The translations under genes and the position numbers were made by a program. A DNA stretch of 32,000 nt from Cryptosporangium sp. NPDC051539 (GTDB lineage: Bacteria; Actinomycetota; Actinomycetes; Mycobacteriales; Cryptosporangiaceae): the NCBI RefSeq assembly GCF_044454545.1, contig NZ_JBITDV010000002.1, forward strand, positions 723,140-755,139, read 5' to 3'. Positions 1 to 21,530 of the stretch are shown in pieces. How positions within the stretch are numbered: the first letter of the stretch is position 1; each line of letters starts with the position of its first letter. The notes beneath the pieces are model-generated. The model was not told the origin of the DNA and did no database searches. It saw only the letters and a list, made by a program, of their open reading frames with translations.

Positions 1-2
1 TG

Positions 3-1052
3 AAGAACCGCGCCGCGCTGTCCAAGACGACGTCCGGCACCGGGCCGTTCACGCTGGTCGAGGTGGCACCCGGTGACCACTACACCTACCAGTTGCGCGA
101 CGGGTACACCTGGGGCCCGAACGGCGCGACGACCGCGACGAAGGGCATGCCCAAGACCGTCGTCGTCAAGATCGTGCAGAACGAGACGACCGCGGCGAAC
201 CTGCTGCTCTCCGGCGGCCTGAGCGCCTCGCAGATCCTCGGTCCCGACGCCGCCCGGCTGGAGAAGGCGGGCCTGTTCTCGGCCACCACCCCGGCACTGG
301 TCGGGGAGCAGTGGTACAACCACGCCAAGGGGCGGGTCACCGAGGACCCGAAGGTCCGGCTGGCGCTCACCCAGGCCCTCGACCTCCCGCAGCTGCAGAA
401 GGTGCTCACCTCGGGCAAGGGCACGGCGGCGACGACGCTGGCCGACAACGTGCCGATCGCCTGCCCCGGCGACTCGATCAAGTCGTCGTTGCCCGCCAGT
501 GACCCCAAGGCGGCCGGCGCCCTGCTCGACCAGGCCGGCTGGACGCGGGGCGCCGACGGACGCCGGACCAAGGCCGGCAAACCGCTGACGCTGACGATGC
601 TCTACCAGACCACCGGAAGCGGCAGCGACGCCGCGGCCGAGCTCACGGTCAAGCAGTGGAAAGCCGTCGGCGTCACCGCCACCGCGAAGGCCCAGAACGA
701 GACGACGCTGACCGGCACGCTCTTCGGCGCCGGAGACTGGGACGTGGCCTGGGTGCCGCTGCACGTCAACACCCCGGACCAGCTCGTGCCGTTCCTCTCC
801 GGCGCGGCCGCACCCAAGGGCACGAACTTCGCGGCGATCTCCGACCCCGTCTACGACCAGGCGGTCAAGGCCGCGATGGCGATCCCGGGCACCGACGGGT
901 GCAAGGCCTGGCTCGACGCCGAGTCCGGCCTGATCGCCCGGGCGTCGATCGTCCCGTTCGCCAGCACGAACTTCCGGACGTTCGGCAAGGCGGCGAAGTT
1001 CGAGACGCCGGGTGGCCTGGTCCCGACGAGCATCCGGATGCTGGCGAAATAG
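3..1052 (+). CDS. ABC transporter substrate-binding protein, family 5 (peptide/nickel type), 5'-truncated by the window edge
   Basis: Frame 3 is open from nt 3 to TAG 1050-1052. The translated C-terminal ~350 aa has the composition and length of a family-5 solute-binding protein. It lies directly upstream of DppB/C/D/F-type genes. Confidence 0.8.
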   Translation, partial: KNRAALSKTTSGTGPFTLVEVAPGDHYTYQLRDGYTWGPNGATTATKGMPKTVVVKIVQNETTAANLLLSGGLSASQILGPDAARLEKAGLFSATTPALVGEQWYNHAKGRVTEDPKVRLALTQALDLPQLQKVLTSGKGTAATTLADNVPIACPGDSIKSSLPASDPKAAGALLDQAGWTRGADGRRTKAGKPLTLTMLYQTTGSGSDAAAELTVKQWKAVGVTATAKAQNETTLTGTLFGAGDWDVAWVPLHVNTPDQLVPFLSGAAAPKGTNFAAISDPVYDQAVKAAMAIPGTDGCKAWLDAESGLIARASIVPFASTNFRTFGKAAKFETPGGLVPTSIRMLAK

Positions 1053-1053
1053 C

Positions 1054-2037
1054 GTGTCGGCTGCCCTGACCGTCCGCAACCTGCCCACGGTGAGCCCGTG
1101 GGTGGGTTTCGGCGTGCGTCGTTTCGGCCGGCTGCTGGTCTCGCTGTGGGTCCTGCTGACGGCGTCGTTCGCGATGATCCACCTGATCCCGGGCGACCCG
1201 GTCCGCGGCGCGCTCGGCCCCACCGCACCGGCGGAACTGGTCGAAGCGCGCCGGGAGGCCCTGGGGCTGAACGACCCGCTCGCCGTCCAGTACCTGCACT
1301 ACGTCAAGGGCCTGCTGACCGGCGACCTGGGCACGTCGCTGGCGTCCCGGCTGCCGGTCTCCGACGTGATCGCCCAGCGGCTGCCGGCGACGCTGACGCT
1401 GGCCGTGCTGGCGTTCCTCGCGGCCGTGCTGATCGCGATCCCGCTCGGCGTCACGATGGGGGTGCTGACCCGGCGCGGTCACGGATCCCGCACCGAGGTC
1501 GCGTTCACCACCAGCAGCACGGTCGTGGCGACGGTTCCGGACTTCCTGATCGGCGTCGCGCTGGTGTACGTGTTCGGGATCCTGCTCGGCTGGCTGCCGA
1601 TCGCCGGTAACGACACCGCGGCGGCGTACCTACTGCCGGTGTTGTCGCTGGCGATCGGACCGGCCGCGATCCTGGCCCGGATCGTCCGGGTCGAGATGAC
1701 GTCGGTCCTGGAGGCCGACTTCGTCCGCACGGCCCGGGCCAAGCGGCTGCCGGCCCGGTCGATCTACCTGCGCCACGCGCTGCCCAACGCGGTCACCGGC
1801 GCCCTGACCGTCGGCGGGCTCCTGCTCAGCGCGATGGTGGCCGGCACCGTGCTGGTCGAGAACGTGTTCGCCTGGCCCGGGCTCGGCAGCACGATCGTGA
1901 GCGCGATCCTGACCAAGGACTACCCGGTGGTGCAGGCGATCGTCCTCGTCTACGGCGTCGGGGTGCTGCTCACCAACCTCGTCGTGGACGTGTTCCTGGC
2001 GTTGCTCGATCCCCGCTCGACGATCCGGGAGGGCTGA
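1054..2037 (+). CDS. ABC peptide transporter permease (DppB/OppB-like)
   Basis: N-terminal RRFGRLLVSLWVLLTASFAMIHLIPGDP motif typical of DppB/OppB, then multiple hydrophobic segments. GTG 1054 lies 1 nt after the upstream stop. In-frame GTGs at 1090 and 1102 are equally possible starts. Confidence 0.85.
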   Translation: MSAALTVRNLPTVSPWVGFGVRRFGRLLVSLWVLLTASFAMIHLIPGDPVRGALGPTAPAELVEARREALGLNDPLAVQYLHYVKGLLTGDLGTSLASRLPVSDVIAQRLPATLTLAVLAFLAAVLIAIPLGVTMGVLTRRGHGSRTEVAFTTSSTVVATVPDFLIGVALVYVFGILLGWLPIAGNDTAAAYLLPVLSLAIGPAAILARIVRVEMTSVLEADFVRTARAKRLPARSIYLRHALPNAVTGALTVGGLLLSAMVAGTVLVENVFAWPGLGSTIVSAILTKDYPVVQAIVLVYGVGVLLTNLVVDVFLALLDPRSTIREG

Positions 2038-2040
2038 CGG

Positions 2041-3891
2041 ATGCGCTGGTTACGGGTCGTCCGGACCCCGCTGGGCCTGACCGCGACCGTGCTGATGGCT
2101 GTCGTCCTGGTGGCCGCCGCGCTCGGGCCGGTGGTGTGGGGCACGGGTGCCGACGCGGTCGACACCGACCGGATCCTGGCGGCGCCGTCGGGCGCGCACT
2201 GGGCCGGGACCGACAGCCTGGGCCGGGACATCCTGCTGCGGGTGCTGGTCGCGTCCCGGCTCTCGATCGTGCTCGCGCTGCTGGCCACCGTCCTCGCGGT
2301 CGGCGCCGGGCTGGTGCTGGGCGCGTTGCCGTTCCTGCTCGGCCGGCGGTCCGGCCGGATCGTCACGGCGGCGGTCAACATCGCGGTCGCTTTCCCCGGC
2401 ATCCTGCTGGCGTTGTTCTTCGCGGTCGTGTTCGGCGTCGGTGCGACCGGCGCGGTGCTCGCGATCGGACTCGCCGGTGCCCCGTCGTTCGCGCGCCTCA
2501 CCCAGACGCTGGTCGCCGAGGTCGCGGCGCGGGACTACGTCTCGGCCGCACGGACGGTGGGCCTCGGCCGGGGCCGGATCCTCGTCCGGCACGTGCTGCC
2601 GAACGTCGCCGAGCCGCTGGTCGTCAACGCGACGATCGGGGCCGGCGGTGCGCTGCTCTCGTTCGCCGGGCTGTCGTTTCTCGGCCTGGGCGTCCAGCCG
2701 CCCGCCTACGACTGGGGCCGGTTGCTCTACGACGGCATCGGCACGATCTACGTGAACGCGGCGGCGGCGCTCGCCCCCGGGGCCGCGGTGGTGCTGGCCG
2801 GACTCGCGTTCAACTTCTTCGGCGAATCCGTCGCCAAGGGCCTGGGCGTCACCGTCGACGTCGGACTCCGGCCGGTCGTGCGGGCCCGCGTCCGCACGGA
2901 AGGACGACCGGCCGAGCCGGACGCGGACGTCGTGCTCGACGTCCGGGACCTCGAGGTCACCCTGGCCGGTCCGGCCGGGCCGATCCGGCCGGTCCGGGGC
3001 ATCTCGTTCCAGGTCCGACGCGGTGAGGCCGTCGGCATCGTCGGGGAGTCCGGGTCCGGGAAGTCGATGACGGCACTGGCCGTCACCCGCCTGATCGCCG
3101 ACCACGGCCAGGTGGACGCCACCCGGCTCACGCTGCTCGACCAGGACCTGCTCGCGCCGGACACCGCGGCCCGGCGCCGGACGCTGGGCACCCGGGTGGC
3201 GATGGTCTTCCAGGACCCGATGACCGCGTTCAACCCCACCAGGCGGATCGGTGCCCAGCTCGCGGAAGCGGCGACCCACCACCAGAAACTCAGCCGGAGG
3301 GAGGCGATGGCCCGGGCGGCGGACCGGCTGGACGCGGTCCGGATCCCGGACGCCCGGACCCGCGTGCGCCAGTACCCGCACGAGTTCTCCGGCGGCATGC
3401 GTCAGCGGGCGATGATCGGCATGGGGCTGATGAACACCCCGGCCCTGATCGTGGCCGACGAGCCGACCACGGCCCTCGACGTGACCGTGCAGCGGCAGGT
3501 GCTCGAACTGCTCGCGACGATCCGGCGCAGCGACCGCGCCGCGCTGGTGCTGATCAGCCACGACGTCGCGGTGATCGGGGACGTGTGCGATCGCGTGCTG
3601 GTGATGTACGCGGGCCGGATCGTCGAGGAGCTGCCGGCCGACGCCAAGCCCCTGCACCCGTACACGCGGGCGCTGATGGACGCGGTGCCCGACATGGCGA
3701 CCGACCTCGACCGTCCGCTCGCGACGATCCCCGGCCGTCCGGTCGACCCGGCCGACGTGCCACCCGGCTGTGCCTACGCCGAGCGGTGCCCGCTCGCCGA
3801 CGACCACTGCCGGGCCGAGGATCCACCCCTGGCCGCCGATTCGCCGGAGCACCGGGTCGCGTGCTGGCACGCGGGTGAGGAGCCCCGATGA
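2041..3891 (+). CDS. Fused ABC peptide transporter permease (DppC-like, N-terminal ~290 aa) and ATP-binding subunit (DppD-like, C-terminal)
   Basis: The N-terminus carries a HWAGTDSLGRDIL motif of DppC/OppC. After residue ~300 come Walker A GESGSGKS, signature FSGGMRQR, Walker B LIVADEPT, and the oligopeptide-transporter C-terminal Cys-containing tail. It is one uninterrupted 616-aa ORF. Confidence 0.9.
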   Translation: MRWLRVVRTPLGLTATVLMAVVLVAAALGPVVWGTGADAVDTDRILAAPSGAHWAGTDSLGRDILLRVLVASRLSIVLALLATVLAVGAGLVLGALPFLLGRRSGRIVTAAVNIAVAFPGILLALFFAVVFGVGATGAVLAIGLAGAPSFARLTQTLVAEVAARDYVSAARTVGLGRGRILVRHVLPNVAEPLVVNATIGAGGALLSFAGLSFLGLGVQPPAYDWGRLLYDGIGTIYVNAAAALAPGAAVVLAGLAFNFFGESVAKGLGVTVDVGLRPVVRARVRTEGRPAEPDADVVLDVRDLEVTLAGPAGPIRPVRGISFQVRRGEAVGIVGESGSGKSMTALAVTRLIADHGQVDATRLTLLDQDLLAPDTAARRRTLGTRVAMVFQDPMTAFNPTRRIGAQLAEAATHHQKLSRREAMARAADRLDAVRIPDARTRVRQYPHEFSGGMRQRAMIGMGLMNTPALIVADEPTTALDVTVQRQVLELLATIRRSDRAALVLISHDVAVIGDVCDRVLVMYAGRIVEELPADAKPLHPYTRALMDAVPDMATDLDRPLATIPGRPVDPADVPPGCAYAERCPLADDHCRAEDPPLAADSPEHRVACWHAGEEPR

Positions 3892-4634
3892 GCGAGCTGA
3901 AGTTCGAGCACGTCACGGTCCGCTACGGGCGCGCCACCGCGGTGGACGACGTCAGCCTGACGGTGCCGGACGGCGCCGTGATCGGGCTCGTCGGGGAGTC
4001 CGGCTCGGGAAAGTCCACGCTGGCCCGCGCCGCCGTCGGTCTGGCTCCGCCGGTCGGCGGCCGGATCACGCTCGACGGCGCGCCGGTGCCGACCCGGGGG
4101 CGCCCCCGTCCACTGCAGATGGTGTTCCAGGACCCGTACTCCTCGCTCGACCCGCGGATGACGGTCGGCGCGACCATCGCCGAGGCGATGCCTCCGGGGC
4201 GGGCCCGGTCCGAGCGGCGGGCCGGCGTCACCCGCCTGCTCGAACAGGTCCACCTGGACCCCGGTACCGCCGGCACGCTCCCGTCCCGGCTCTCCGGCGG
4301 TCAGCGGCAGCGCGTCGCGCTGGCCCGCGCGCTGGCGGCCGACCCGAGCGTGATCATCGCCGACGAGATCACCTCCGCCCTGGACGTCTCGGTCCAGGGC
4401 GCGGTGCTCAACCTCGTCCGCGAACTCCAGCGCGAGCTGGGGCTGTCGATGCTGTTCATCTCCCACAACCTCGCCGTCGTCCGTTACGTCGCCTCGCACG
4501 TGGCGGTGATGCGACGCGGGCGGCTCGTCGAGCACGGGCCCACGTCGCAGGTGCTGGCCGAGCCCGCACACGAGTACACCCGCGAGTTGCTCGCCGCCGT
4601 ACCCGGCCGAGCGCCCCGAAGGAGTAAGCCATGA
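3888..4634 (+). CDS. ABC peptide transporter ATP-binding protein (DppF-like)
   Basis: Walker A GESGSGKST, signature LSGGQRQR, Walker B IIADEITS. ATGA start/stop overlap with the upstream gene. Confidence 0.9.
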   Translation: MSELKFEHVTVRYGRATAVDDVSLTVPDGAVIGLVGESGSGKSTLARAAVGLAPPVGGRITLDGAPVPTRGRPRPLQMVFQDPYSSLDPRMTVGATIAEAMPPGRARSERRAGVTRLLEQVHLDPGTAGTLPSRLSGGQRQRVALARALAADPSVIIADEITSALDVSVQGAVLNLVRELQRELGLSMLFISHNLAVVRYVASHVAVMRRGRLVEHGPTSQVLAEPAHEYTRELLAAVPGRAPRRSKP

Positions 4635-7600
4635 ACCTCGCCGACGTGGTGGTTCCGTCGCAGCCCGCGCTGTCGGCGGACGGGAGCCGGATCGTCTACG
4701 TGCTGCGGACCATCGACACCGGTCACGACCGGAACGTCGATCAGCTGTGGCTGGCCGGCGCCGACGGGGGCACGCTGCGGCGGCTCACCCACGGCGTCAC
4801 CGACGCCGCCCCGGCCTGGTCTCCCGACGGCACCCGGATCGCGTTCCTCCGCGACGGTCAGGTCGCGATTCTCGACGTCGAGGGTGGCGAACCCGAGGCG
4901 GTCACCGACCTGCCGCTGGGCGCCGGCGCGCCGCGCTGGAGCCCGGACGGCTCGCGGCTCGCGTTCACCGCTCCGGTCGACCCGTCCGGCGGCGGCCGGG
5001 GTCCGATGGTCTCCGACGGCCTCGACTACCAGGCCGACGGCGCCGGCCTGTACGGCCCGGTCCGGCGGCAGGCCTTCGTTCTCGATCCGGACGCCCGGCC
5101 GGCGCGGCAGGTCACCGACGGTCCGTACGACGTCGGGGCGGTGGCCTGGTCGCCGGACGGCACGACGCTGGCGTTCACCCGGAAGGACGGTGCCGACAGC
5201 GACCTGAGCCACCGCACACCGGTGTTCCTGCTGGACATCGACGACCCGCACGCGCGTCCCCGGGCCGTGGCGTTCACCGGCGGGGTGGCGGCCACGGTGG
5301 GCTGGGTGACCGACGGCTCGGCGCTGCTCGTCGTCGGCTGGGCCGGTGACCCGACCGGACATGCCCGCCTGTATCGCGTCCGCACGGGGGACGGCGAGGT
5401 CACCGACCTCACCGGGTCGCTGGACCGCAACGTGATGCCGGGTGGGCCGGCGTACCCCGGCGGTCTGCCGGTCGAGGCCGGCGGCCGGGTGTACTTCTGC
5501 CTGCGCGAGCACGGATGCAGCCATCTGTGGTCGGTCGCGATCGACGGCGGGGACGCCCGGCCGGTCGTCGGCGGGCCGGGGCGCGTGGTGTCCGGGCTGT
5601 CGGTCGGCGGCGGGCGGGCCGCGATCACGGTGGCCACCGGGACGTCGTTCGGCGAGGTCGCGATCGTGGACCTGGCCGTCGGTACTACCGGCACGGTGGA
5701 CACGCTGACCGTGCTGACCGGGCACGGAGCCCCGGAGCTGCACGCCCGCGAGGAGCGGTGGTTCACGATCTCCGACGGCACCCGGGTGCAGGCCTGGCTC
5801 CTGCGCGACCCGGCGCGGAGCGGGCCGCGGCCGCTGCTGCTCGACATCCACGGCGGTCCGCACAACGCCTGGAACGCGGCCGCGGACGAGATGCACCTCT
5901 ACCACCAGGAGCTGGTCGACCGCGGCTGGGTCGTGCTGCTGGTCAACCCGCGCGGCAGCGACGGCTACGGCGAGGCGTTCTACGACGGCGCCCACGGCCG
6001 GTGGGGCGTCGCGGACGCGGCCGACTTCCTCGAGCCGCTCGACGAACTCGTCGCCGAGGGGCTCGCCGACCCGGACCGGCTCGCGGTCTCGGGCTACAGC
6101 TACGGCGGGTTCATGACCTGCTGGCTGACCGGCCACGACGACCGGTTCGCGGCAGCGGTGGCCGGCGGGACGGTGAGCGACCTGGTGAGCATCAGCGGCT
6201 CCAGCGACGACGCCCACTTCCTCAGTGCGTTCGAGCTCGGCGGCCTGCTCTGGGAGAAGCCGGCCGAGTACGCGGCGATGTCACCGCTGACCCACGTGGC
6301 CGACGTCCGCACGCCGACGCTGGTGCTGCACGGCGCCGAGGACCGGACCTGCCCGGTCGGCCAGGCCCAGCAGTGGCACACCGCGCTGCGGCAGCTGGGC
6401 GTGCCGACCCGGCTGGTCGTGTATCCGGAGGCCTCGCACGCGTTCATCCTGCTCGGGCCACCGTCGCAGCGGATCGATTACAACCGGCGGGTCGTCGACT
6501 GGCTCGAAGAGCACACCGGCCGGGCACGGATCGACGCGTCGCACTGGCAGGAGCGGCTGACCTCGCTGGCCGTCCGGCACAAGGTGCCGGGCGCGCAGCT
6601 CGGCCTCCTGCGGGCCGACGAACTGGTCGAGCTGGCCCACGGGGTGCTGCACACCGGGACCGGAGCGCCGGTCCGTACCGACTCGCTGTTCCAGATCGGC
6701 TCGATCACGAAGGTCTGGACCGCCACCGTCGCGATGATCCTGGTCGACGAGGGGCTGCTCACGCTCGACACCCCGGTCGCCGAGGTGCTGCCGGAGCTGC
6801 GGCTCGCCGACCCGGACGTGACCAAGGCGGTCACCGTGCGGCACCTGCTCACCCACACCAGCGGCATCGACGGCGACGTGTTCACCGACACCGGCCGTGG
6901 TGACGACTGCGTCGAGAAGTACGTCGAGGCCCTCGGCGAGGTCGGTCAGAACCATCCGCTGGGCGTCACGTTCTCGTACTGCAACGCCGGTTACACGCTG
7001 CTGGGCCGGGTGATCGAGAAGATCACCGGTCAGACGTGGGACCAGGCGTTGCGCTCACGCCTGTTCACGCCGCTCGGGCTCGCGAGCACCGGGACGCTGC
7101 CGGAGGAGGCGCTGCTCCACTCGACCGCGGTCGGTCACCAGGACGGCGAGCCGGTCGGGACCTGGATGCTGCCGCGCGCGCTCGGACCCGCGGGGCTGAT
7201 CAACTCCACGGCCGCCGACGTGCTGGCCTTCGCCCGGGCGCACCTGACCGGCGGGCTGCTGACCGCACAGAGCGCGGCCGCGATGGCGGCGTTCCAGGCC
7301 GACCTGCCCGACAAGCAGGTGCTCGGTGACTCGTGGGGCCTCGGCTGGATCCGGTTCGACTGGGACTCCCACCGCCTGATCGGCCACGACGGCACCACGC
7401 TGGGTCAGGCCGCGTTCCTGCGGATCCTGCCCGAGCAGGGGCTGGCCGTCGTCCTGCTCACCAACGGCGGGAACGCCCGTGACCTCTACGAGGACCTGTT
7501 CCGGGAGATCTTCGCCGAGGTCGCCGGGGTGACGGTGCCGCGTCCGTTCGCACCGCCGCCGGAGCCGTACGACGGGGACGTGACGCCGTTCGCCGGTACC

Positions 7601-7849
7601 TACGAGCGGGCCGGCGTCCGGATGGAGGTGGCGAGCAACCCGCCCCGGCTGCGCACGACGATCACCGGGCCGCTCGCCGAGCTGGAGCCGGACACGGTGC
7701 ACGAGTACGCGATGGTGCCGGCCGGGCCGGCGGTCTTCGCGGTGAAACCGCCGGAGGCGGAGAACTGGATCCCGGTGACGTTCTACGCGCTCCCGACCGG
7801 CGAGCCGTACCTGCACTTCGGGGTTCGAGCCACACCGAAGGTGGGCTGA
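4631..7849 (+). CDS. Bifunctional fusion of an S9 (prolyl oligopeptidase/acylaminoacyl-peptidase type) serine peptidase and an S12 beta-lactamase-fold serine hydrolase (D-aminopeptidase/DD-peptidase-like)
   Basis: Residues 1-~630: repeated WSPDG beta-propeller motifs, then an alpha/beta hydrolase with GYSYGG (Ser codon 6098-6100), HGAEDRTCP and EASHAF. Residues ~640-1072: SITK (SxxK, nt 6701-6712), YCNAGY (YxN), HDGTTLG, and a C-terminal beta-barrel-like tail. There is no stop between the halves. ATGA overlap at 4631 with GGAG at 4621. Confidence 0.85.
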   Translation: MNLADVVVPSQPALSADGSRIVYVLRTIDTGHDRNVDQLWLAGADGGTLRRLTHGVTDAAPAWSPDGTRIAFLRDGQVAILDVEGGEPEAVTDLPLGAGAPRWSPDGSRLAFTAPVDPSGGGRGPMVSDGLDYQADGAGLYGPVRRQAFVLDPDARPARQVTDGPYDVGAVAWSPDGTTLAFTRKDGADSDLSHRTPVFLLDIDDPHARPRAVAFTGGVAATVGWVTDGSALLVVGWAGDPTGHARLYRVRTGDGEVTDLTGSLDRNVMPGGPAYPGGLPVEAGGRVYFCLREHGCSHLWSVAIDGGDARPVVGGPGRVVSGLSVGGGRAAITVATGTSFGEVAIVDLAVGTTGTVDTLTVLTGHGAPELHAREERWFTISDGTRVQAWLLRDPARSGPRPLLLDIHGGPHNAWNAAADEMHLYHQELVDRGWVVLLVNPRGSDGYGEAFYDGAHGRWGVADAADFLEPLDELVAEGLADPDRLAVSGYSYGGFMTCWLTGHDDRFAAAVAGGTVSDLVSISGSSDDAHFLSAFELGGLLWEKPAEYAAMSPLTHVADVRTPTLVLHGAEDRTCPVGQAQQWHTALRQLGVPTRLVVYPEASHAFILLGPPSQRIDYNRRVVDWLEEHTGRARIDASHWQERLTSLAVRHKVPGAQLGLLRADELVELAHGVLHTGTGAPVRTDSLFQIGSITKVWTATVAMILVDEGLLTLDTPVAEVLPELRLADPDVTKAVTVRHLLTHTSGIDGDVFTDTGRGDDCVEKYVEALGEVGQNHPLGVTFSYCNAGYTLLGRVIEKITGQTWDQALRSRLFTPLGLASTGTLPEEALLHSTAVGHQDGEPVGTWMLPRALGPAGLINSTAADVLAFARAHLTGGLLTAQSAAAMAAFQADLPDKQVLGDSWGLGWIRFDWDSHRLIGHDGTTLGQAAFLRILPEQGLAVVLLTNGGNARDLYEDLFREIFAEVAGVTVPRPFAPPPEPYDGDVTPFAGTYERAGVRMEVASNPPRLRTTITGPLAELEPDTVHEYAMVPAGPAVFAVKPPEAENWIPVTFYALPTGEPYLHFGVRATPKVG

Positions 7850-8928
7850 TGACCGACCTGCGGGACATGCTCGCGGACGCGCGGGCGCTGATCGAGTGCG
7901 AGTCGCCCTCCGGCGACCGGGCCGCGGTCGCCCGGTCGGCCGAGGTCGTCGCCGAGGTCGGTACCGGCATCCTGGGCGTCGCCCCGGAGCGGATCGACGG
8001 GGTCCATCTGCGGTGGCGGCTCGGCCCGGGCCCGTCGCGGGTGCTGCTGCTCGGTCACCACGACACGGTCTGGCCGCTCGGGACGCTCGACGACCGGCCG
8101 TACGCGGTGGACGGCGGGATCCTGCGTGGCCCGGGCTGTTTCGACATGAAGGTCGGGCTGGTGATGGCGTTGCACGCGGCTGCCGGGCTGGACGGCGTCA
8201 CGCTGCTGGTCACCGGCGACGAGGAGCTCGGGTCGCCGGGCTCGCGCGAGCTGATCGAGCGGGAGGCCAGGGCGGCGGAGGCGGCGCTGGTGCTGGAGGC
8301 GTCCGCCGACGGTGGCGCGCTGAAGTGCGAGCGGAAGGGCACCTCGCTCTACGACGTGCGGGTGATCGGCCGGGCCGCGCACGCCGGGCTGGAGCCCGAG
8401 CGCGGAGTGAACGCGACGATCGAGCTCGCCCGCCAGGTGCTGGCGGTCAGCGCGCTGGGCGGCGCGGGGACCACGGTGACGCCGACTGTGGCGCGGGCAG
8501 GCGTCACGACGAACACCGTGCCGGCCGAGGGATCGTTCGCGGTGGACGTCCGGGTGGAGACCCGGGCGGAACAGGAGCGGGTCGACCGGGCCATGCGCGC
8601 GCTGGGCGCGGTCGACCCGGGTGCGCGCGTCGAGGTGACCGGAGGTCGGAACCGGCCGCCGCTCGACGCGTCGGCGTCGGACTCGCTCTATGCTCTGGCC
8701 TGCCGGATCGCCGTCGGGCAGGGGCTGGCCGAGCCGGGGCGCGCCGCGGTCGGTGGCGCGTCCGACGGGAACTTCACCGCCGGGGTCGGCACGCCGACGC
8801 TCGACGGTCTCGGCGCGGTCGGTGGTGGCGCGCACGCGGCCGACGAGCACGTCGTGGTGGAGCACATCGGGCCACGGACCGCGCTGCTGCGCGCGCTGGT
8901 CTCGCACCTGGGGGCGGGGGGCTCGTGA
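7849..8928 (+). CDS. M20 family metallohydrolase (carboxypeptidase G2 / N-acyl-amino-acid deacylase-like)
   Basis: HHDTV, CFDMKVG and TGDEELGS metal-ligand/catalytic motifs, and a dimerisation-domain-sized insert. The ATG overlaps the upstream TGA by 1 nt (TGATG, 7847-7851). Confidence 0.85.
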   Translation: MTDLRDMLADARALIECESPSGDRAAVARSAEVVAEVGTGILGVAPERIDGVHLRWRLGPGPSRVLLLGHHDTVWPLGTLDDRPYAVDGGILRGPGCFDMKVGLVMALHAAAGLDGVTLLVTGDEELGSPGSRELIEREARAAEAALVLEASADGGALKCERKGTSLYDVRVIGRAAHAGLEPERGVNATIELARQVLAVSALGGAGTTVTPTVARAGVTTNTVPAEGSFAVDVRVETRAEQERVDRAMRALGAVDPGARVEVTGGRNRPPLDASASDSLYALACRIAVGQGLAEPGRAAVGGASDGNFTAGVGTPTLDGLGAVGGGAHAADEHVVVEHIGPRTALLRALVSHLGAGGS

Positions 8929-9713
8929 TCGGCGTCGACAACGCGGCGGAAGCCGCGGCGCTGAAGGCCGGAGTCGTCGTGCGTGAGTTGACCGACATGG
9001 ACCGGATCACCCGCGCGGTGGCGCTGCTCGCGGACATCTGGGGACGCTCGTCGAACCCGCCGGTGACCGCGGAGCTGCTGCGTGCCTTCTCGAAGGCGGG
9101 CAACTACGTGGCCGGTGCGTTCGAGGGAGAGCGGCTGGTCGGTGCGTGCGTGGCGTTCTTCCACGAGCCGGCGGGCAGCGCGCTGCACAGCCACATCGCC
9201 GGAGTGGCCGCCGACGCCGCCGGGCGCGGTGTCGGCTTCGCGCTGAAGTTGCACCAGCGGGCGTGGGCGCTGCAGCGCGACGTCGCCGACATCGTCTGGA
9301 CGTTCGACCCGCTGGTGGCCCGCAACGCCTACTTCAACCTGGGGAAGCTGGGGGCGCGGCCGGCCGAGTACCTGCCGAACTTCTACGGGCCGATGTCGGA
9401 CGCGTTCAACGGGAACGAGGAATCCGATCGGTTGCTGGTGCGGTGGAGGCTCCGGGAGTACGGGAACTCCACCGGCCCGGTGGCGGCCGGTGCGGTTCCG
9501 GTGCTGAGCGTCGGCGCCGACGCCGGTCCGGTGGCCGGCCGGCCCGAGGGCCCGATCGGCCTGGTCGCCGTGCCCCGGGACATCGGCGCGATGCGGGCGA
9601 GCGACCCCGCGCTGGCCCAGCGGTGGCGGGTCGCCGTGCGGGAGGCCCTCACCGGGGTCAGCATCGAAGGCTTCGACCCGTCCGGTTACTACGTGGTACG
9701 GAGGGAATCGTGA
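8925..9713 (+). CDS. GNAT-superfamily acyltransferase (COG3375-like), candidate amino-acid N-succinyl/acetyl-transferase
   Basis: Only the last 263 codons of the 605-aa ORF look protein-like. They include an HIAGVAADAAGRGVGFALKLHQRAW acyl-CoA-binding-type motif. GTG 8925 forms a GTGA overlap with the M20 stop. Confidence 0.65.
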   Translation: MIGVDNAAEAAALKAGVVVRELTDMDRITRAVALLADIWGRSSNPPVTAELLRAFSKAGNYVAGAFEGERLVGACVAFFHEPAGSALHSHIAGVAADAAGRGVGFALKLHQRAWALQRDVADIVWTFDPLVARNAYFNLGKLGARPAEYLPNFYGPMSDAFNGNEESDRLLVRWRLREYGNSTGPVAAGAVPVLSVGADAGPVAGRPEGPIGLVAVPRDIGAMRASDPALAQRWRVAVREALTGVSIEGFDPSGYYVVRRES

Positions 9714-10813
9714 AATTCGCCGGGATCGTGTTGCGACGGATCGTGATGCCGCTGGTGGCGCCGTTCCGGACGTCGTTCGGCGTCGAGACGACCCGCGACG
9801 TCCTGCTCGTGGGCGCGGTGGCCGAGGACGCCGAGGGCTGGGGCGAATGCGTGGCGATGACGAGCCCGCGCTACTCGTCCGAGTACGTCGACGCGGCGGC
9901 GGACGTGCTGCGCCGGTTCTTCGTGCCCGCGGTGCTGTCCGGCCCGGTCTCGGCGGTCTCGGTGGCGGAGTCGCTCGCGCCGTTCAAGGGGCACCAGATG
10001 GCCAGGGCGGCGCTCGAGACGGCGATCCTGGACGCCGAGCTGCGTGCGTCGGGCCGGTCGTTCGGGCGGGAGCTCGGAGCGGTGCGCTCGCGGGTGCCGT
10101 GCGGGGTCTCGGTCGGCATCATGGACAGCATCCCGCAGCTGCTCGACGCCGTCGGCGGCTACCTCGACGAGGGTTACGTCCGCATCAAGCTCAAGATCGA
10201 ACCGGGCTGGGACGTCGAGCCGGTCCGGGCCGTCCGGGAGCGCTACGGCGACGACGTGCTGCTCCAGGTGGACGCGAACACGGCCTACACGCTGGGCGAC
10301 GCCAGGCACCTGGCCCGGCTCGACCCGTTCGACCTGCTGCTGATCGAGCAGCCGCTCGACGAGGACGACCTCCTCGGGCACGCGGCGCTGGCCCGGCAGA
10401 TCCGCACCCCGGTGTGCCTGGACGAATCGATCACGTCGGCCAGGGCCGCCGCGGCCGCGATCCGCCTGGACGCCTGCCAGATCGTCAACATCAAGCCGGG
10501 ACGGGTCGGCGGCTACCTCGAAGCGCGCCGGATCCACGACGTCTGCGTGGCGCACGGCGTCCCGGTCTGGTGCGGCGGGATGCTGGAAACCGGGCTCGGC
10601 CGGGCCGCCAACGTGGCGCTCGCGGCGCTGCCCGGGTTCACGCTGCCCGGCGACACCTCGGGATCGGGGCGTTACTACGCCGCCGACATCACCGAGCCGT
10701 TCGTCCTCCGCGACGGTCACCTCGACGTGCCGGTCGGGCCCGGACTAGGGGTGACGCCGATTCCGGACCGGCTCGACGAGGTGACGGTTTCGACCGAGTG
10801 GCTCCCGGCGTGA
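9710..10813 (+). CDS. Enolase-superfamily N-succinyl/N-acylamino-acid racemase / o-succinylbenzoate synthase family protein
   Basis: The sequence VKFAGIVLRRIVMPLVAPFRTSFG...GYVRIKLKIEPGWDVEPVRAVRERYGDDVLLQVDANTAYTL...LLLIEQPL...VCLDES...IVNIKPGRVGG is nearly collinear with the Amycolatopsis N-acylamino-acid racemase as I remember it. KxK, D/E/D metal ligands and the second catalytic K are present. GTGA overlap at 9710. Confidence 0.9.
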   Translation: MKFAGIVLRRIVMPLVAPFRTSFGVETTRDVLLVGAVAEDAEGWGECVAMTSPRYSSEYVDAAADVLRRFFVPAVLSGPVSAVSVAESLAPFKGHQMARAALETAILDAELRASGRSFGRELGAVRSRVPCGVSVGIMDSIPQLLDAVGGYLDEGYVRIKLKIEPGWDVEPVRAVRERYGDDVLLQVDANTAYTLGDARHLARLDPFDLLLIEQPLDEDDLLGHAALARQIRTPVCLDESITSARAAAAAIRLDACQIVNIKPGRVGGYLEARRIHDVCVAHGVPVWCGGMLETGLGRAANVALAALPGFTLPGDTSGSGRYYAADITEPFVLRDGHLDVPVGPGLGVTPIPDRLDEVTVSTEWLPA

Positions 10814-10828
10814 CGTTACGGTGAGCCG

Positions 10829-12445
10829 GTGCGGGTGAGGCCTCGTGTGAACCTCGGGCGCGTCGTCGACGACCTCGGCGTGACGCTGCTCGAACACGCC
10901 CACGGGGACGTCGACCGGCCCGACGAGATCAGCGCGGTAGTTTTCCACGACCCGTCCGACCAGCCGGTGCTGCCCGCGCACGCGCTGGTGCTGGGCATCG
11001 GGGTGGACGACCCGGGTGCGCTGGCCGCGCTCCTCGTCGCGCTCGGGCAGCAGAACGCCGCCGCGCTCGTCGTCCGGGCGCCGGTGCCGCTCACCGACGA
11101 GGTGCGGGCCGCGGTCGACTCGGCCGGGGTCGCCGTGCTCGGGCTGCGCCGGGGCGCCACCTGGAACCACCTCAGCGACCTGCTGCGCTCGCTGCTCGCC
11201 CCGGGCGCCGATGCCGGACCGGCCGACGAGACGCTGCTCGGCGGGCTGCCCGCCGGTGACCTCTTCGCGGTCGCCAACGCGATCGCGTCGCTGCTGGACG
11301 CGCCGGTCACGATCGAGGACCGCAACTCCCGGGTGCTGGCCTTCTCCGGACGGCAGGACGAGGCCGATTCGTCCCGGGTCGACACGATCCTGGGCCGGCA
11401 GGTGCCCGAGAGCTACGCGCGAGTCCTGCACGAGCGGGGGGTGTTCCGGGAGCTGCTCCGCGGCGACCGGCCGATCTTCATCGAGCCGATCCCCGACCGG
11501 ATCAACGGTTTCCTCAAGCCGCGCGTCGCGATCCGGGTGCGCGCGGGCGACGAGGTGCTCGGGTCGATCTGGGCCGCGGTGCCCGGGCCGCTGAGCGACG
11601 AGCGCAGCGCGGCGTTGGGCGAGGCGGCCAACCTGGTCGCCCTGCACATGCTGCGGGTCCGGGCCGGTGCCGACGTGCAGCGGCGGATGCGGGCCGATCT
11701 GCTGAACGCTGCGCTGGGGGGCGGCGCGGGCGCACACGAGGCCCTCGAGCGGCTCGGCCTGTCGAGCCAGCCGCTGCTGGTGCTCGGGGTCGCGCTCGAC
11801 GAACGCGCCGATGCCGACAGTGCGAGCGTGATCCAGGACCGGCAGGGACTCAGCGACGCGTTCGCGCTGCACCTGCACGCGGTGCACCCGCGGGCCGTCG
11901 CCGCGGCGATCGGCGCGGTCACCTACGGCCTGCTGCCGCTGACCGGCACTCCCGACCGGGCGGTGCGGATCCTCCAGGGGTTCCAGGACCGGCTGGGTGG
12001 CCGGCTCCCGTCGATCGCCGCCGTGGGGCCGGTGGCGCGGGGGCTGTCGGACGTCGCCCGCAGCCGCACCAGCGTCGACCGGGTGCTGCGGGTGCTGCGC
12101 GACGGGCGTCCGCACCGGCGGATCGGCCGCTTCGACGAGCTCCAGGGCGAAGCACTGGTCTCCGAGCTGCGGGACCTCGCCGCGGCGCGCGGCGAGAAAC
12201 CGGCCGGGGCGCTGGCCCGCCTGGTGGAGTACGACGTCCTGCACCGCGGCAACCTCGTGCAGACGCTGCGCGCCTGGCTGGACGCTTTCGGCGACGCGGT
12301 GCTGGCCGCCGAGTCGATCGGCGTCCACCAGAACACGTTCCGGTACCGGTTGCGACGCGTTTCCGACGTCGGGCAGTGCGATCTCGGCGACCCCGACCAG
12401 CGGTTCGGACTCATGGTGCAGCTGCGGGCGCTCCGCCCGGAGTAG
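10829..12445 (+). CDS. PucR family transcriptional regulator
   Basis: N-terminal PucR-like sensor region and C-terminal HTH (GVHQNTFRYRLRRV). It starts 15 nt after the racemase stop. The start could instead be the in-frame GTG at 10847. Confidence 0.8.
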   Translation: MRVRPRVNLGRVVDDLGVTLLEHAHGDVDRPDEISAVVFHDPSDQPVLPAHALVLGIGVDDPGALAALLVALGQQNAAALVVRAPVPLTDEVRAAVDSAGVAVLGLRRGATWNHLSDLLRSLLAPGADAGPADETLLGGLPAGDLFAVANAIASLLDAPVTIEDRNSRVLAFSGRQDEADSSRVDTILGRQVPESYARVLHERGVFRELLRGDRPIFIEPIPDRINGFLKPRVAIRVRAGDEVLGSIWAAVPGPLSDERSAALGEAANLVALHMLRVRAGADVQRRMRADLLNAALGGGAGAHEALERLGLSSQPLLVLGVALDERADADSASVIQDRQGLSDAFALHLHAVHPRAVAAAIGAVTYGLLPLTGTPDRAVRILQGFQDRLGGRLPSIAAVGPVARGLSDVARSRTSVDRVLRVLRDGRPHRRIGRFDELQGEALVSELRDLAAARGEKPAGALARLVEYDVLHRGNLVQTLRAWLDAFGDAVLAAESIGVHQNTFRYRLRRVSDVGQCDLGDPDQRFGLMVQLRALRPE

Positions 12446-12472
12446 CCGGCTCCTCACCCTCGGCAGGACCGT

Positions 12473-12494
12473 CCATACGCCGACGATAGGCACC
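12473..12494 (+). promoter_or_regulatory. Candidate VanR box upstream of vanR. Tandem heptamers CCATACG and CGATAGG with 11-bp periodicity.
   Basis: CCATACGCCGACGATAGGCACC ends 19 nt before ATG 12514. It is 17/22 identical to nt 16904-16925 upstream of vanH. TACGTT (12501-12506) is a possible -10 element that would give a leaderless or very short-leader vanR mRNA. Confidence 0.4.
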
Positions 12495-12513
12495 TGCTCG
12501 TACGTTGGAGAGC

Positions 12514-13185
12514 ATGCGTGTACTGGTCGTCGAGGACGAGCCCTACATGGCCGAGGCGATCCGGGACGGGCTGCGGCTCGAAGCGATCGCCGCCGACCTC
12601 GCCGGCGACGGCGACACCGCGCTCGAGTTGCTGGGCATCAACACGTACGACATCGCCGTCCTCGACCGGGACGTCCCCGGGCCGTCCGGCGACGAGATCG
12701 CCGCCCGCATCGTCGCGTCCGGCAGTGGCATGCCGATCCTGATGCTCACCGCCGCCGACCGGCTGGACGACAAGACCTCCGGCTTCGAGCTCGGCGCCGA
12801 CGACTACCTCACCAAGCCGTTCGCGCTGCGGGAGCTCGTGCTCCGGCTCCGTGCGCTCGACCGCAGGCGCGCCCACAGCCGACCGCCGGTGCGCGAGATC
12901 GCCGGCCTGCGGCTGGACCCGTTCCGCCGCGAGGTCTATCGCGACGGCCGCTACGTCGCGCTCACCCGCAAGCAGTTCGCCGTGCTCGAGGTCCTCGTCG
13001 CGGCCGAGGGCGGGGTGATCAGCGCCGAGGAACTCCTGGAACGGGCCTGGGACGCCCACACCGACCCCTTCACCAACGCCGTCCGCATCACGGTCTCCGC
13101 CCTGCGCAAACGGCTCGGCGAGCCCGGGCTGATCGCCACCGTCCCCGGCGTCGGCTACCGCATCGAGGGTCAGCAGCGTGAGTAG
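12514..13185 (+). CDS. vanR: OmpR-family response regulator VanR
   Basis: MRVLVVEDEPYMAEAIRDGLRLEAIAADLAGDGDTALELL... closely resembles Streptomyces coelicolor VanR as I remember it. It has receiver plus winged-helix domains and lies next to vanS and vanHAX. The ORF track starts at TTG 12505, but ATG 12514 preceded by GGAGAG is preferred. Confidence 0.9.
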   Translation: MRVLVVEDEPYMAEAIRDGLRLEAIAADLAGDGDTALELLGINTYDIAVLDRDVPGPSGDEIAARIVASGSGMPILMLTAADRLDDKTSGFELGADDYLTKPFALRELVLRLRALDRRRAHSRPPVREIAGLRLDPFRREVYRDGRYVALTRKQFAVLEVLVAAEGGVISAEELLERAWDAHTDPFTNAVRITVSALRKRLGEPGLIATVPGVGYRIEGQQRE

Positions 13186-14305
13186 ACCGGCCGGGTTGAG
13201 CGTCCGGCTGCGGCTCACGCTCAGCTACGCCGGTTTCCTGATGCTGGCCGGCGTCCTGCTGCTCGCGGTCGTCTGGGTGTTCCTCCTGCGTTACGTCCCC
13301 GACCCGCCGCGCGACCTGCCGTTTCCCGGTATCCGCATCATCGGCCCCAGCCGTCACGACCTCCTGGTCGCGTTCGCTCCCCGGGCAGCCGAGATGCTGG
13401 CCTTCCTGCTGGTGTTCGGTCTGCTCGGAGGCTGGTTCCTGGCCGGCCGCATGCTCGCTCCGCTGTCCCGGATCACGGACGCGACGCACCGGGCCGCGAC
13501 CGGATCCTTGTCGCACCGGATCGCGCTGGAAGGACGGCACGACGAGTTCCGCGAACTCGCCGACAACTTCGACGCGATGCTCGCCCGGCTCGAGGCCCAC
13601 GTCGCCGGGCAGCAGCGGTTCGCGGCCAACGCGTCGCACGAGTTGCGTACTCCGCTGGCGATCACCCGGACGCTGCTCGACGTCGCCCGCGACGACCCCG
13701 GCCGCGACGACCACGAGCTCGACGACCGTCTCCGGGCCGTCAACGCCAGGGCGATCGAGCTCACCGAGGCGCTGCTCCTGCTCAGCCGGGCCGACCAGCG
13801 CTCGTTCGAACCCGAGCGGGTCGACCTGTCGCTGGTCGCGGAGGAAGCCACCGAGACGCTTCTTCCGCTGGCCGAGAAACACGGCGTCGCGATCGAGACC
13901 GGCGGGGACGTCACGCTCGCCGTCGGCTCGCACGCACTCCTCCTGCAGCTGACGACGAACCTCCTGCACAACGCGATCGTCCACAACCTGCCGGAGCACG
14001 GCACCGTGCGGGTCACCACCACGATCGGCCCGGACGCGGCCGTGCTCGCGGTCGAGAACACCGGCGAGACGCTCGATCCCGGGCTGATCCCGACGCTCAC
14101 CGAGCCGTTCCAGCGCGGCACCCAGCGCGTCCGCAGCGACCAGGCCGGTGTCGGGCTCGGCCTGGCGATCGTCCGGAGCATCACCCAGGCCCACGACGGA
14201 CTCCTCACGCTCACCCCGCGGACGGGCGGCGGACTCTGCGTCGAGGTGCGGCTGCCGGTCACCCCGCTGCACTGGCGCGACTACGTGATGGGGAAGTCGA
14301 AATAG
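13178..14305 (+). CDS. vanS: Sensor histidine kinase VanS
   Basis: Two N-terminal TM segments with a short loop, a HAMP domain, an H-box SHELRTPL, and N/G boxes (LLHNAIVHN, GVGLGLAIV). GTG 13178 overlaps the vanR stop by 8 nt. The N-terminus (GLSVRLRLTLSYAGFL) resembles actinomycete VanS. Confidence 0.88.
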   Translation: MSRPAGLSVRLRLTLSYAGFLMLAGVLLLAVVWVFLLRYVPDPPRDLPFPGIRIIGPSRHDLLVAFAPRAAEMLAFLLVFGLLGGWFLAGRMLAPLSRITDATHRAATGSLSHRIALEGRHDEFRELADNFDAMLARLEAHVAGQQRFAANASHELRTPLAITRTLLDVARDDPGRDDHELDDRLRAVNARAIELTEALLLLSRADQRSFEPERVDLSLVAEEATETLLPLAEKHGVAIETGGDVTLAVGSHALLLQLTTNLLHNAIVHNLPEHGTVRVTTTIGPDAAVLAVENTGETLDPGLIPTLTEPFQRGTQRVRSDQAGVGLGLAIVRSITQAHDGLLTLTPRTGGGLCVEVRLPVTPLHWRDYVMGKSK

Positions 14306-16857: not shown

Positions 16858-16903
16858 GCCCCCAGTCAAGGGTCCGCGGTGTTGTCAGCCCGTACGCAAT
16901 TCT

Positions 16904-16925
16904 CGATACGCGAGCGATAGGCGCC
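16904..16925 (-). promoter_or_regulatory. Candidate VanR box upstream of vanH. Tandem heptamers CGATACG and CGATAGG (as read on + strand) with 11-bp periodicity.
   Basis: CGATACGCGAGCGATAGGCGCC lies 47-68 nt upstream of the vanH ATG and is 17/22 identical to nt 12473-12494. A CGTACG palindrome lies on the gene-proximal side of both boxes (12499-12504 and 16891-16896). Confidence 0.4.
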
Positions 16926-16927
16926 CG

Positions 16928-17542: not shown

Positions 17543-17578
17543 CCTGTTCCTCCCCGGGGGCGTCAAAAGCGAGTAGTC

Positions 17579-21443: not shown

Positions 21444-21456
21444 GGGTCCACGATGC

Positions 21457-21506: not shown

Positions 21507-21530
21507 GGCGTCCCGGTAGAACTCCGGGCC

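Follow-up and report, generated by a model that had tools for sequence, protein, structure and literature searches.

A conserved actinobacterial operon with a PucR-family regulator that may salvage D-residue peptides through an N-succinylamino-acid racemase

A 32,000-nucleotide (nt) window of the Cryptosporangium sp. NPDC051539 genome (assembly GCF_044454545.1, contig NZ_JBITDV010000002.1, positions 723,140 to 755,139 of the forward strand) was found to contain nearly all of an operon that links an ATP-binding cassette (ABC) importer, a fused S9C-S12 peptidase, an M20 hydrolase, a GNAT and an N-succinylamino-acid racemase (NSAR) to a PucR-family regulator. We judge it slightly more probable than otherwise that this is a PucR-controlled operon that takes up peptides containing D-residues, cuts them inside the cytoplasm and turns the D-amino acids so freed into the L form. 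The gene content and motifs, the conserved linkage of the genes in other actinobacteria and a conserved dyad upstream of the first gene are described below, together with the pathway that they suggest and the other explanations that we weighed.

Structure and extent of the operon

The genes from a stand-alone S12 gene (S12up) to the PucR gene form one operon, as the junctions between them indicate. The unit comprises nine structural genes and the regulator, with gene 1 and the start of gene 2 lying outside the window, to its left. The preliminary description, made from the window alone, had set the left boundary at the window edge. This was wrong, as the Logan contig L084 revealed. L084 comes from the same genome, is 100% identical over a 12,037-nt overlap, and places window position 1 at its nt 8948. 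Its first operon gene is S12up, the stop of which overlaps the start of the gene for the substrate-binding protein (SBP), and the operon starts about 2 kb to the left of the window. The full SBP gene occupies L084 8410-9999, encodes 529 amino acids (aa) and begins 538 nt to the left of the window. The genes of the operon, in window coordinates unless L084 is named, are as follows.

L084 6980-8413, first gene of the operon: S12up, stand-alone S12/Beta-lactamase-family gene, 477 aa, with SITK, YNN and HDG motifs and no signal peptide
3-1052, + strand: 3' two-thirds of the SBP gene, a family 5 substrate-binding lipoprotein (Pfam SBP_bac_5, E 5e-34)
1054-2037, + strand: ABC permease 1, DppB/NikB-like (BPD_transp_1_N and BPD_transp_1)
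2041-3891, + strand: fusion of ABC permease 2 with the first ATPase, DppC+DppD-like, 616 aa (BPD_transp_1 at residues 87-265, ABC_tran and oligo_HPY)
3888-4634, + strand: second ABC ATPase, DppF-like (ABC_tran, E 5e-30, and the N-terminal part of oligo_HPY), with an ATGA overlap at both ends
4631-7849, + strand: S9-S12 fusion peptidase, 1072 aa (PD40 propeller; Peptidase_S9, E 2e-47; Beta-lactamase, E 5e-67)
7849-8928, + strand: CPG2-like M20 metallohydrolase, proposed N-succinyl-L-amino-acid desuccinylase (Peptidase_M20 and M20_dimer)
8925-9713, + strand: divergent GNAT, 262 aa, with an extra C-terminal domain, proposed D-amino-acid N-succinyltransferase (predicted fold and homologue annotation)
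9710-10813, + strand: NSAR, MR_MLE (TIGR01928, 299.2 against a cut-off of 200.65)
10829-12445, + strand: PucR/CdaR-family regulator, proposed activator of the operon (HTH_30, E 9e-19; GGDEF_2)

The G+C content of the window is 72%, and reading frames were judged by position-specific GC. Frames on the + strand were supported without a break from nt 1 to 12445, with third-position GC (GC3) of 0.89-0.98 and second-position GC of about 0.5. All seven junctions and the 15-nt gap before PucR proposed earlier were located on the sequence: a 1-nt gap between TAG1050-1052 and GTG1054, a 3-nt gap between TGA2035-2037 and ATG2041, overlaps at 3888 (ATGA), 4631 (ATGA), 7847 (TGATG), 8925 (GTGA) and 9710 (GTGA), and the PucR start GTG10829, 15 nt past the TGA ending at 10813. 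Such tight junctions are common in this genome: the window has 11 further same-strand junctions, and seven of them are likewise overlaps or gaps of at most 1 nt. The junction type is thus unremarkable; the operon stands out for its length, its composition and its conservation. Pfam and NCBIfam agreed with the gene contents of the preliminary description except for the GNAT, which fell below the Pfam threshold and is backed by homologue names and a predicted fold. Consensus scans, which are ill-suited to actinobacterial DNA of 72% GC, found no promoter-like or terminator-like sites above chance in window 1-12600, window 10500-17000 or L084 6200-7100.

Conservation of the gene cluster

A racemase scan over one genome per species returned at least 597 relatives, of which the best 80 loci were mapped with the window proteins; the frequencies from these loci hold for close relatives only, a restriction that we count against the reading given above. 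The GNAT was the most constant neighbor, being present in 69 of the 80 NSAR loci and directly upstream of NSAR in 63. M20 was present in 47 loci (together with the GNAT in 43), and PucR followed NSAR in 39. S9 and S12 were found in 17 of the 80, as were orthologous ABC genes, and the complete set was found in 11. The carriers of the complete set were Actinomadura, Nocardioides, Lentzea, two Microbacterium species, Arthrobacter, Dactylosporangium, Streptomyces, Spirillospora, an actinomycete metagenome-assembled genome and Gaiellaceae. The gene order of the window was kept in 10 of these 11 loci, the Gaiellaceae locus being divergently arranged.

The conserved order, SBP, permease, permease/ATPase, ATPase, S9-S12, M20, GNAT, NSAR and PucR, also occurs in Cryptosporangium arvum. 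It was seen in at least 10 actinobacterial genera and in many soil metagenome contigs. Families with the full cluster include Cryptosporangiaceae, Thermomonosporaceae, Nocardioidaceae, Pseudonocardiaceae, Microbacteriaceae, Micrococcaceae, Micromonosporaceae and Streptomycetaceae, and rearranged versions occur in Nonomuraea and Kutzneria.

A reciprocal scan of metagenomes with the fusion peptidase gave 80 loci, for which the counts refer to S9-S12 genes with enough flanking DNA. M20 lay immediately downstream of S9-S12 in 25 of 34 loci, and an ABC ATPase gene directly upstream in 23 of 36. The GNAT was present in 18 of 27 loci and NSAR in 9 of 17. S12up stood at the head of the cluster in 8 of the 14 metagenome loci with enough upstream DNA, and also in C. 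arvum and Amycolatopsis. Surveys that started from the racemase and from the fusion peptidase recovered the same neighbors, so the objection that the linkage is not conserved in related genomes fails.

A minimal six-gene form was found in Amycolatopsis (loci L003, L165 and L166). It consists of S12, SBP, permease, permease/ATPase, ATPase and GNAT, all translationally coupled, with no S9-S12, M20 or NSAR. The GNAT is thus tied to the transporter and the S12 gene, and not to NSAR alone.

Cluster proteins of Cryptosporangium and Actinomadura were 73-82% identical (GNAT 64%), transporter proteins were 75-84% identical to those of Amycolatopsis, and cluster proteins were 58-78% identical to those of Nocardioides (compared loci L004, L003 and L008). 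These identities seem high for different actinobacterial orders, which suggests that the cluster may have spread horizontally as a block.

One variant locus (L114 5066-11168) carries a PRK09061-type amidohydrolase (Amidohydro_3), M20, a 118-aa N-terminal NSAR/OSBS remnant (OSBS, o-succinylbenzoate synthase) and S9-S12. This arrangement has the look of a cluster that has decayed or been rewired.

NSAR, GNAT and M20 proteins

The identification of the racemase in the preliminary description was upheld. The protein is 74% identical to the characterized Amycolatopsis N-acylamino-acid racemase/NSAR (1SJA, E 5e-181) and retains all of its catalytic residues. The residues conserved between the two are the catalytic lysine pair K163/K263, the metal ligands D189, E214 and D239, R266, and the 20s-loop and pocket residues (F19, F23, M50, Y55 and G291). 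R266 is a determinant of NSAR specificity, and characterized NSARs favor hydrophobic N-succinyl amino acids (PMC12006748).

The GNAT was the most divergent of the three proteins at the level of profiles. Neither Pfam nor NCBIfam gave a match at threshold (Acetyltransf_1 scored 19.1 bits against 20.7, E 0.0017; NCBIfam had no match), and neither phmmer nor a 30-sequence profile found anything significant in the PDB (E of about 0.6-1). More than 5,800 homologues are called GNAT by their source annotations, and an NCBI entry from strain NPDC051539 matches the 262-aa protein at 100% identity. An AlphaFold2 model (mean predicted local distance difference test score, pLDDT, 80.8) displayed a GNAT domain followed by a C-terminal domain of about 95 residues. 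When this model was compared with the PDB by Foldseek, 163 matches had E of at most 0.001, and all 50 listed were GNATs, with a probability of 1.0 and target template-modeling scores of up to 0.70; GNATs that act on amino acids were among them. The motif G-R-G-V-G-F-A at residues 100-106 was nearly invariant among 30 homologues (G-R-x-[VI]-G-[FY]-A), in which the mean column identity was 71%. It corresponds to the acyl-CoA-binding β4-α3 motif (R/Q-x-x-G-x-G/A) within the predicted fold. The GNAT fold of the 262-aa protein is thus a prediction that came from the structure model and Foldseek and not from sequence profiles.

A GNAT encoded on a Priestia megaterium plasmid, beside a gene named menC (NSAR/OSBS), is 28% identical to the operon protein over 252 aa (E 2e-31). 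The order of genes on that plasmid is RpiR, amidohydrolase, GNAT and menC. The same GNAT family also occurs near menC on Deinococcus radiodurans MP1. Compared through these Priestia and Deinococcus relatives, the operon protein is in keeping with the "divergent GNAT" that belongs to the Geobacillus pathway described below.

The top solved relative of the M20 protein was CPG2 (1CG2, E 6e-31). Its motifs HHD70-72, FDMK, DEE124-126 and HAADEH are of the metal-binding kind.

S9C-S12 fusion peptidase and its S12 paralogue

The N-terminal part of the fusion peptidase (about nt 4631-6535) consists of an S9C-type β-propeller and an α/β-hydrolase, and the C-terminal part (about nt 6536-7849) is an S12 serine hydrolase of the penicillin-binding fold with a C-terminal extension of about 120 aa. 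In the S9 part, the serine motif GYSYGG lies at residues 488-493 (Ser490), and the motifs HGAEDRT and EASHAF supply the candidates D571 and H603. The propeller with a hydrolase, the Ser-Asp-His order and the GxSYGG motif place it in S9C. Its nearest solved chains were 8WT1 and the S9C enzymes 5YZM and 7EP9, both of which are termed carboxypeptidases in the papers that describe them.

The S12 half carries the family motifs SITK691-694, YCN783-785 and HDG919-921. Its nearest solved relatives were IS11 (7SPN), SurE (6KSU), Ulm16, Pab87 (2QMI, E 1e-24), R61, ClbP, alkaline D-peptidase and the Streptomyces S12-family peptidase 3WWX. S12up is a paralogue of this half, the two being about 44% identical in the Amycolatopsis and C. 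arvum copies. NCBIfam matches of S12up include the methyl acetate hydrolase AcmB. No signal peptide was detected in the fusion peptidase or in any other enzyme of the operon; the fusion peptidase and S12up are thus predicted to be cytoplasmic, and the SBP a lipoprotein.

S9 and S12 were encoded by one open reading frame in 12 of 16 related genome loci and by separate adjacent genes in the rest. This is Rosetta-stone evidence for the D-peptide reading.

ABC importer

The preliminary description called the transporter a peptide ABC importer, and its architecture is that of a PepT-family importer. The PepT (Opp/Dpp/Nik) set is complete, with a family 5 lipoprotein SBP, two permeases and two ATPases with the oligo_HPY tail. 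The L084 copy of the SBP has the lipoprotein signal MRLTTAAAYGLCLTLALAGC (…LALAGC), with a lipobox present. The fusion of permease 2 with the first ATPase is maintained in related loci, where the matches to the two parts were contiguous.

The sequence does not by itself mark the ligand as a peptide, since the best NCBIfam and PDB relatives were Nik/Opp2-type or unnamed SBPs, below cut-off. The top NCBIfam matches of the transporter were a mixture of nickel, opine and peptide types, none of which reached an equivalog cut-off. For permease 1, all matches were under cut-off, the top one being Opp2B (272 against 350). The closest solved relatives of the SBP were weak (6LU2 with 110 bits, NikA with 79 bits), and a full-text search on the ligand of 6LU2 returned nothing relevant.

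PucR regulator and conserved dyad

The regulator has the features of the PucR family, with a C-terminal HTH_30 (67.4 against a threshold of 27) and a central GGDEF-like domain (GGDEF_2, 25.4 against 24.5). Its top NCBIfam match was AdeR, under cut-off.

Alignment of the DNA upstream of S12up from 11 loci revealed the dyad TTCGTC-N6-GACGAA, which ends 34-36 nt upstream of the ATG. With at most two mismatches, it was present at that position in 12 of 14 loci, and a weaker second copy was seen 32 nt farther upstream in several loci. The background rate was about one site per 6 kb, mostly intragenic. Loci bearing the dyad include L084, L085, L087, L089, L099, L104, L131, L135 and L155. It also precedes PucR genes (L008, L097, L131 and L074), S9 genes that lack an upstream ABC gene (L109, L115, L116, L029 and L097), M20 in triad-only Rhodococcus loci, and S12up in Amycolatopsis. 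In this genome, the proximal dyad reads CCTGTC-GTCCAC-GACGAA and lies at L084 6927-6944, about 2.0 kb to the left of window position 1, with the upstream copy at about 6895-6912.

The S12up ATG has a TAnnnT box 6-8 nt in front of it and lacks a Shine-Dalgarno sequence, a pattern that points to a leaderless start. The dyad centers would be near -42.5 and -74.5 of this probable leaderless promoter, so the arrangement fits an activator. The co-conserved PucR protein is probably the activator that acts at this putative operator, a pairing that we infer.

Within the window, there were 34 dyad-like matches with at most three mismatches, against 16.7 expected. We do not regard these as sites: all but one lie in the stretch read as coding, where GAC-GAA codons produce them. 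A copy with two mismatches, TTCGTCCTCCGCGACGGT, occurs at window 10700-10717, inside the 3' end of NSAR and 112 nt before the PucR start. It encodes FVLRDG, of which FVL is shared with the Amycolatopsis NSAR, and it may be a coding coincidence.

Comparison with known systems

Both the GNAT-NSAR-M20 triad and D-peptide salvage as an idea have been described before; the extended regulated cluster did not turn up in the full-text literature searched. In Geobacillus kaustophilus, a D- to L-amino-acid route consists of a GNAT succinyl-CoA:D-amino-acid N-succinyltransferase, NSAR and an M20 N-succinyl-L-amino-acid hydrolase (Sakai et al. 2006, summarized in bioRxiv 10.1101/2022.03.03.481873; PMC12006748). 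Our operon has these three enzyme families side by side and in one orientation, its NSAR is of the same subfamily, and the GNAT family is the one found beside NSAR/OSBS on the Bacillota plasmid. In contrast to the Geobacillus route, the triad here is the distal end of a ten-gene operon with an importer, two S12 domains, S9C, PucR and a conserved putative operator. The order here is M20, GNAT, NSAR, and the M20 is CPG2-like, unlike the amidohydrolase of the Priestia locus.

The dpp-ykf region of Bacillus subtilis, to which dppA also belongs, offers a second parallel. There, the dipeptide ABC transporter genes dppB-E lie beside ykfA-D, which include the gene for the enolase-superfamily L-Ala-D/L-Glu epimerase YkfB (PMC2954226), and DppA is a D-aminopeptidase (PMC2651629). 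The two follow one logic: an importer of the Dpp type is clustered with a peptidase specific for D-residues (here a candidate one), with other peptidases and with a stereochemistry-correcting enzyme of the enolase superfamily, and in both the enzymes are cytoplasmic (here by prediction). However, the peptidases there are M55, LD-carboxypeptidase and NlpC/P60, whereas S12 and S9 occur here. The Bacillus epimerase acts directly on the dipeptide, with no cycle of acylation and deacylation, and the substrate there is a murein peptide.

The "CubicO" S12 enzyme Pab87 of Pyrococcus abyssi is cytoplasmic, has an extra C-terminal domain and acts only on D-residue peptides (PMC2651629). Its gene lies beside a dipeptide ABC transporter and a D-aminoacylase, and the authors proposed the processing of environmental D-peptides (PMC2651629). 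The S12 domain of our fusion matches Pab87 in sequence, and both systems place a cytoplasmic S12 enzyme beside an importer. The Pyrococcus system differs in being archaeal, in lacking the NSAR/GNAT/M20 triad and the S9 fusion, and in the fate of the D-amino acid.

Another group of S12 peptidases is secreted or membrane-bound and serves the activation of natural products or resistance to them, and the related cyclases are biosynthetic. Both share with the operon proteins the S12 fold and the SxxK, YxN and (H/K)xG motifs; both recognize a D-residue at the scissile or acyl position, as the operon proteins may do. The D-stereospecific peptidases BogQ, TriF, ClbP and Lip3/Lip7 act on non-ribosomal peptides (PMC12903863), and the cyclases are the penicillin-binding-protein-type SurE and Ulm16. 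Unlike these, the operon proteins are predicted to be cytoplasmic, lie within an uptake operon and include one fused to S9.

The preliminary description knew of no characterized example of the full arrangement. Full-text searches returned no account of the extended cluster, of the fused S9C-S12 peptidase, of the additional S12 gene or of a pairing between the dyad and PucR. The concept has precedents in Pab87 of Pyrococcus and dpp-ykf of Bacillus subtilis.

Proposed pathway and alternative explanations

SBP-dependent ABC systems, as a general rule, import. On this rule and from its context, the PepT-family lipoprotein-dependent importer would take up short D-residue peptides. The two paralogous cytoplasmic S12 hydrolases, one stand-alone and one fused, would cut at D-residues, and the fused S9C exopeptidase or oligopeptidase would trim L-residues. 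The divergent GNAT could then N-succinylate the freed D-amino acids, probably hydrophobic ones, using succinyl-CoA, and NSAR would racemize the N-succinyl-D-amino acids. If M20 hydrolyzes only the L-form, it would pull the reaction to the L side, the net change being from D-amino acid to L-amino acid plus succinate. PucR would activate a promoter with no recognizable -35 element through the two dyads near -42.5 and -74.5, and the transcript is likely leaderless. The substrates, the acyl donor and the direction of flux in this scheme are those that we infer. The GNAT, NSAR and M20 steps are drawn from the published Geobacillus pathway (bioRxiv 10.1101/2022.03.03.481873; PMC12006748), and the S12 cleavage step from the D-stereospecificity of S12 peptidases at the family level (PMC2651629; PMC12903863).

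Peptidoglycan stem peptides and non-ribosomal peptide debris had both been suggested as substrates. The preference of NSARs for hydrophobic residues (PMC12006748) makes D-Phe, D-Leu, D-Val or D-Met-type residues, which are typical of non-ribosomal peptides, seem likelier than the D-Ala or D-Glu of murein. Non-ribosomal debris is thus the better candidate, and peptidoglycan stem peptides fit less well. Tentatively, and with less confidence than in the pathway itself, we suggest a wider picture, in which the cluster would be a horizontally mobile, PucR-activated regulon marked by TTCGTC-N6-GACGAA that feeds on heterochiral peptides such as non-ribosomal peptide or lipopeptide debris. The S9C-S12 protein would be a dual L/D peptidase, and the true role of NSAR would be that of the stereo-inverting end. 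If so, this would be an unrecognized soil route for recycling organic nitrogen rich in D-amino acids.

Besides the restriction of the survey to close relatives, several observations weigh against the D-peptide salvage pathway. The linkage is frequent and not obligate: solitary S9-S12 genes occur in L092, L095 and L125, L085 (8001-13994) passes straight from M20 to PucR with no GNAT or NSAR, and L034 (Asanoa) has no M20. Together with the minimal Amycolatopsis form, these exceptions describe a modular system rather than a fixed one. Neither of the two nearest solved relatives of the S12 half is a hydrolytic D-peptidase, IS11 being an esterase and SurE a peptide cyclase. The M20 protein and the amidohydrolase in the NSAR locus of Priestia are of different subfamilies, with marginal similarity (E 2e-4). 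The SBP and permeases resemble nickel/opine-type PepT proteins as strongly as peptide-type ones, with no equivalog cut-off reached. Finally, the left half of the proximal dyad is degenerate in this genome (CCTGTC, three mismatches), although the invariant GTC…ACGAA core is kept.

Salvage of N-acylated (blocked) peptides or of N-acyl amino acids is an unlikely alternative, in our view. In such a scheme, S9C would be an acylaminoacyl peptidase, NSAR would act directly on N-acyl-D forms, M20 would deacylate the L-form, and the GNAT would top up or re-acylate the pool. S9C does include acylaminoacyl peptidases, one of which (7PX8) was matched with E 3e-27, and NSARs by definition use N-acyl amino acids. 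In the variant locus L114, moreover, S9-S12 and M20 are coupled to an amidohydrolase of the PRK09061 type, which we take to be the N-acyl-D-amino-acid deacylase family. A D-aminoacylase is also present in the Pab87 neighborhood (PMC2651629). However, the nearest solved S9 relatives (5YZM, and also 7EP9) are described as carboxypeptidases and not as proven acylaminoacyl-releasing enzymes, so that nothing specific pointed to the release of N-acylated residues by S9C, a branch that the preliminary description had included. The GNAT is also hard to explain if acylation is dispensable, as it is the most constant partner of NSAR (69 of 80 loci) and accompanies the Amycolatopsis transporter even where NSAR is lacking. 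Nor does N-acyl salvage give the two D-type S12 hydrolases a role.

A non-peptide substrate appears distinctly unlikely; it could be a xenobiotic such as the ester or amide of an amino acid, or a compound resembling an opine or a metallophore. The S12 proteins would then be esterases or amidases, with the triad handling the D-amino-acid moiety that they release. The top matches of the SBP and permease (Nik/Opp2/Cnt types and the unnamed binding protein 6LU2) point this way, as do the esterase IS11, the top solved relative of the S12 half, and AcmB among the matches of S12up. Yet those matches are far under the family cut-offs. An S9 oligopeptidase or exopeptidase with a β-propeller gate is a constant member of the cluster and speaks for oligopeptides, and the oligo_HPY tail of the ATPases is typical of Opp/Dpp systems.

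Here the operon sits between a VanZ-like gene and a vanRS-vanHAX cassette, a setting that would suit a primary role in defense. D-residue peptide antibiotics would then be imported and destroyed, as by D-stereospecific resistance peptidases, and the triad would clear toxic D-amino acids. We think this very unlikely. The van neighborhood is not conserved in the other loci fetched, and the operon enzymes are predicted to be cytoplasmic, whereas the resistance peptidases known so far are secreted or anchored in the membrane. Resistance by actively importing the toxin would be strange, and a PucR-type regulator is typical of catabolic operons.

That the racemase homologue is the OSBS of the cell for menaquinone synthesis, placed in the operon incidentally, is extremely improbable: its top NCBIfam model is named o-succinylbenzoate synthase and enzymes of the NSAR/OSBS subfamily usually retain OSBS activity (PMC12006748), but no men gene occurs in the window or in any related locus, NSAR is translationally coupled to the GNAT, a partner kept in 63 of 80 loci, and the protein retains R266 and an intact active site of the NSAR type. 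Published work has used the same arguments to assign NSAR function to enzymes of the Amycolatopsis type (bioRxiv 10.1101/2022.03.03.481873). The missing men genes and the GNAT coupling argue for N-succinyl amino acid racemization as the role of the operon enzyme.

Significance

The Amycolatopsis-type NSAR, which serves industry as a biocatalyst, is a textbook example of enzyme promiscuity, and its substrate supply in actinobacteria was previously inferred from the three-gene context alone. The operon gives a concrete hypothesis for its natural role, namely the salvage of imported D-residue peptides. Carriers include culturable Streptomyces, Microbacterium, Arthrobacter and Nocardioides. Cell walls and non-ribosomal products supply soil with peptides that contain D-amino acids, a large pool of nitrogen that is hard to degrade, and a widespread pathway of this kind would matter for nutrient cycling. 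In addition, the S9-S12 fusion and the cytoplasmic S12 paralogue are candidate D-specific peptidases for biocatalysis, and the dyad and PucR pair could become an inducible switch.

Neighboring genes

A complete glycopeptide-resistance cassette (window 12505-16803) directly follows the PucR gene, and GC dips to 0.67-0.69 over 14-17 kb. Its genes, and the VanZ-like gene on the other side of the operon, are as follows.

12505-13185, + strand: vanR-like response regulator
13178-14305, + strand: vanS-like kinase
14281-14889, - strand: vanX (NCBIfam, 378.8 against a cut-off of 320)
14886-15914, - strand: D-Ala-D-Lac ligase, vanA (NCBIfam, 575 against a cut-off of 550)
15907-16803, - strand: vanH
L084 6092-6925, - strand: VanZ-like membrane protein gene, divergent from the operon promoter (frame by GC3)

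The vanRS-vanHAX cassette and the VanZ-like gene were considered as parts of the system and rejected, being nearby in none of about 165 other loci fetched. The cassette was treated as unrelated for this reason and is probably a separate insertion. A recorded gene call of 276 aa on the minus strand (L084 6141-6971, 8 nt from S12up) is in the wrong frame, as judged by GC3.

Farther to the right, a second two-component system on the minus strand diverges from an ABC ATPase gene (window 19684-24366), which is followed by two translationally coupled genes of 459 and 186 aa with no Pfam match. Between this region and the van cassette, a TetR gene (window 16928-17599) lies divergent beside the gene for a 712-aa protein (window 17609-19747), which combines a pyridoxamine-phosphate-oxidase-like part with FAD-binding, NAD-binding and 2Fe-2S ferredoxin domains.

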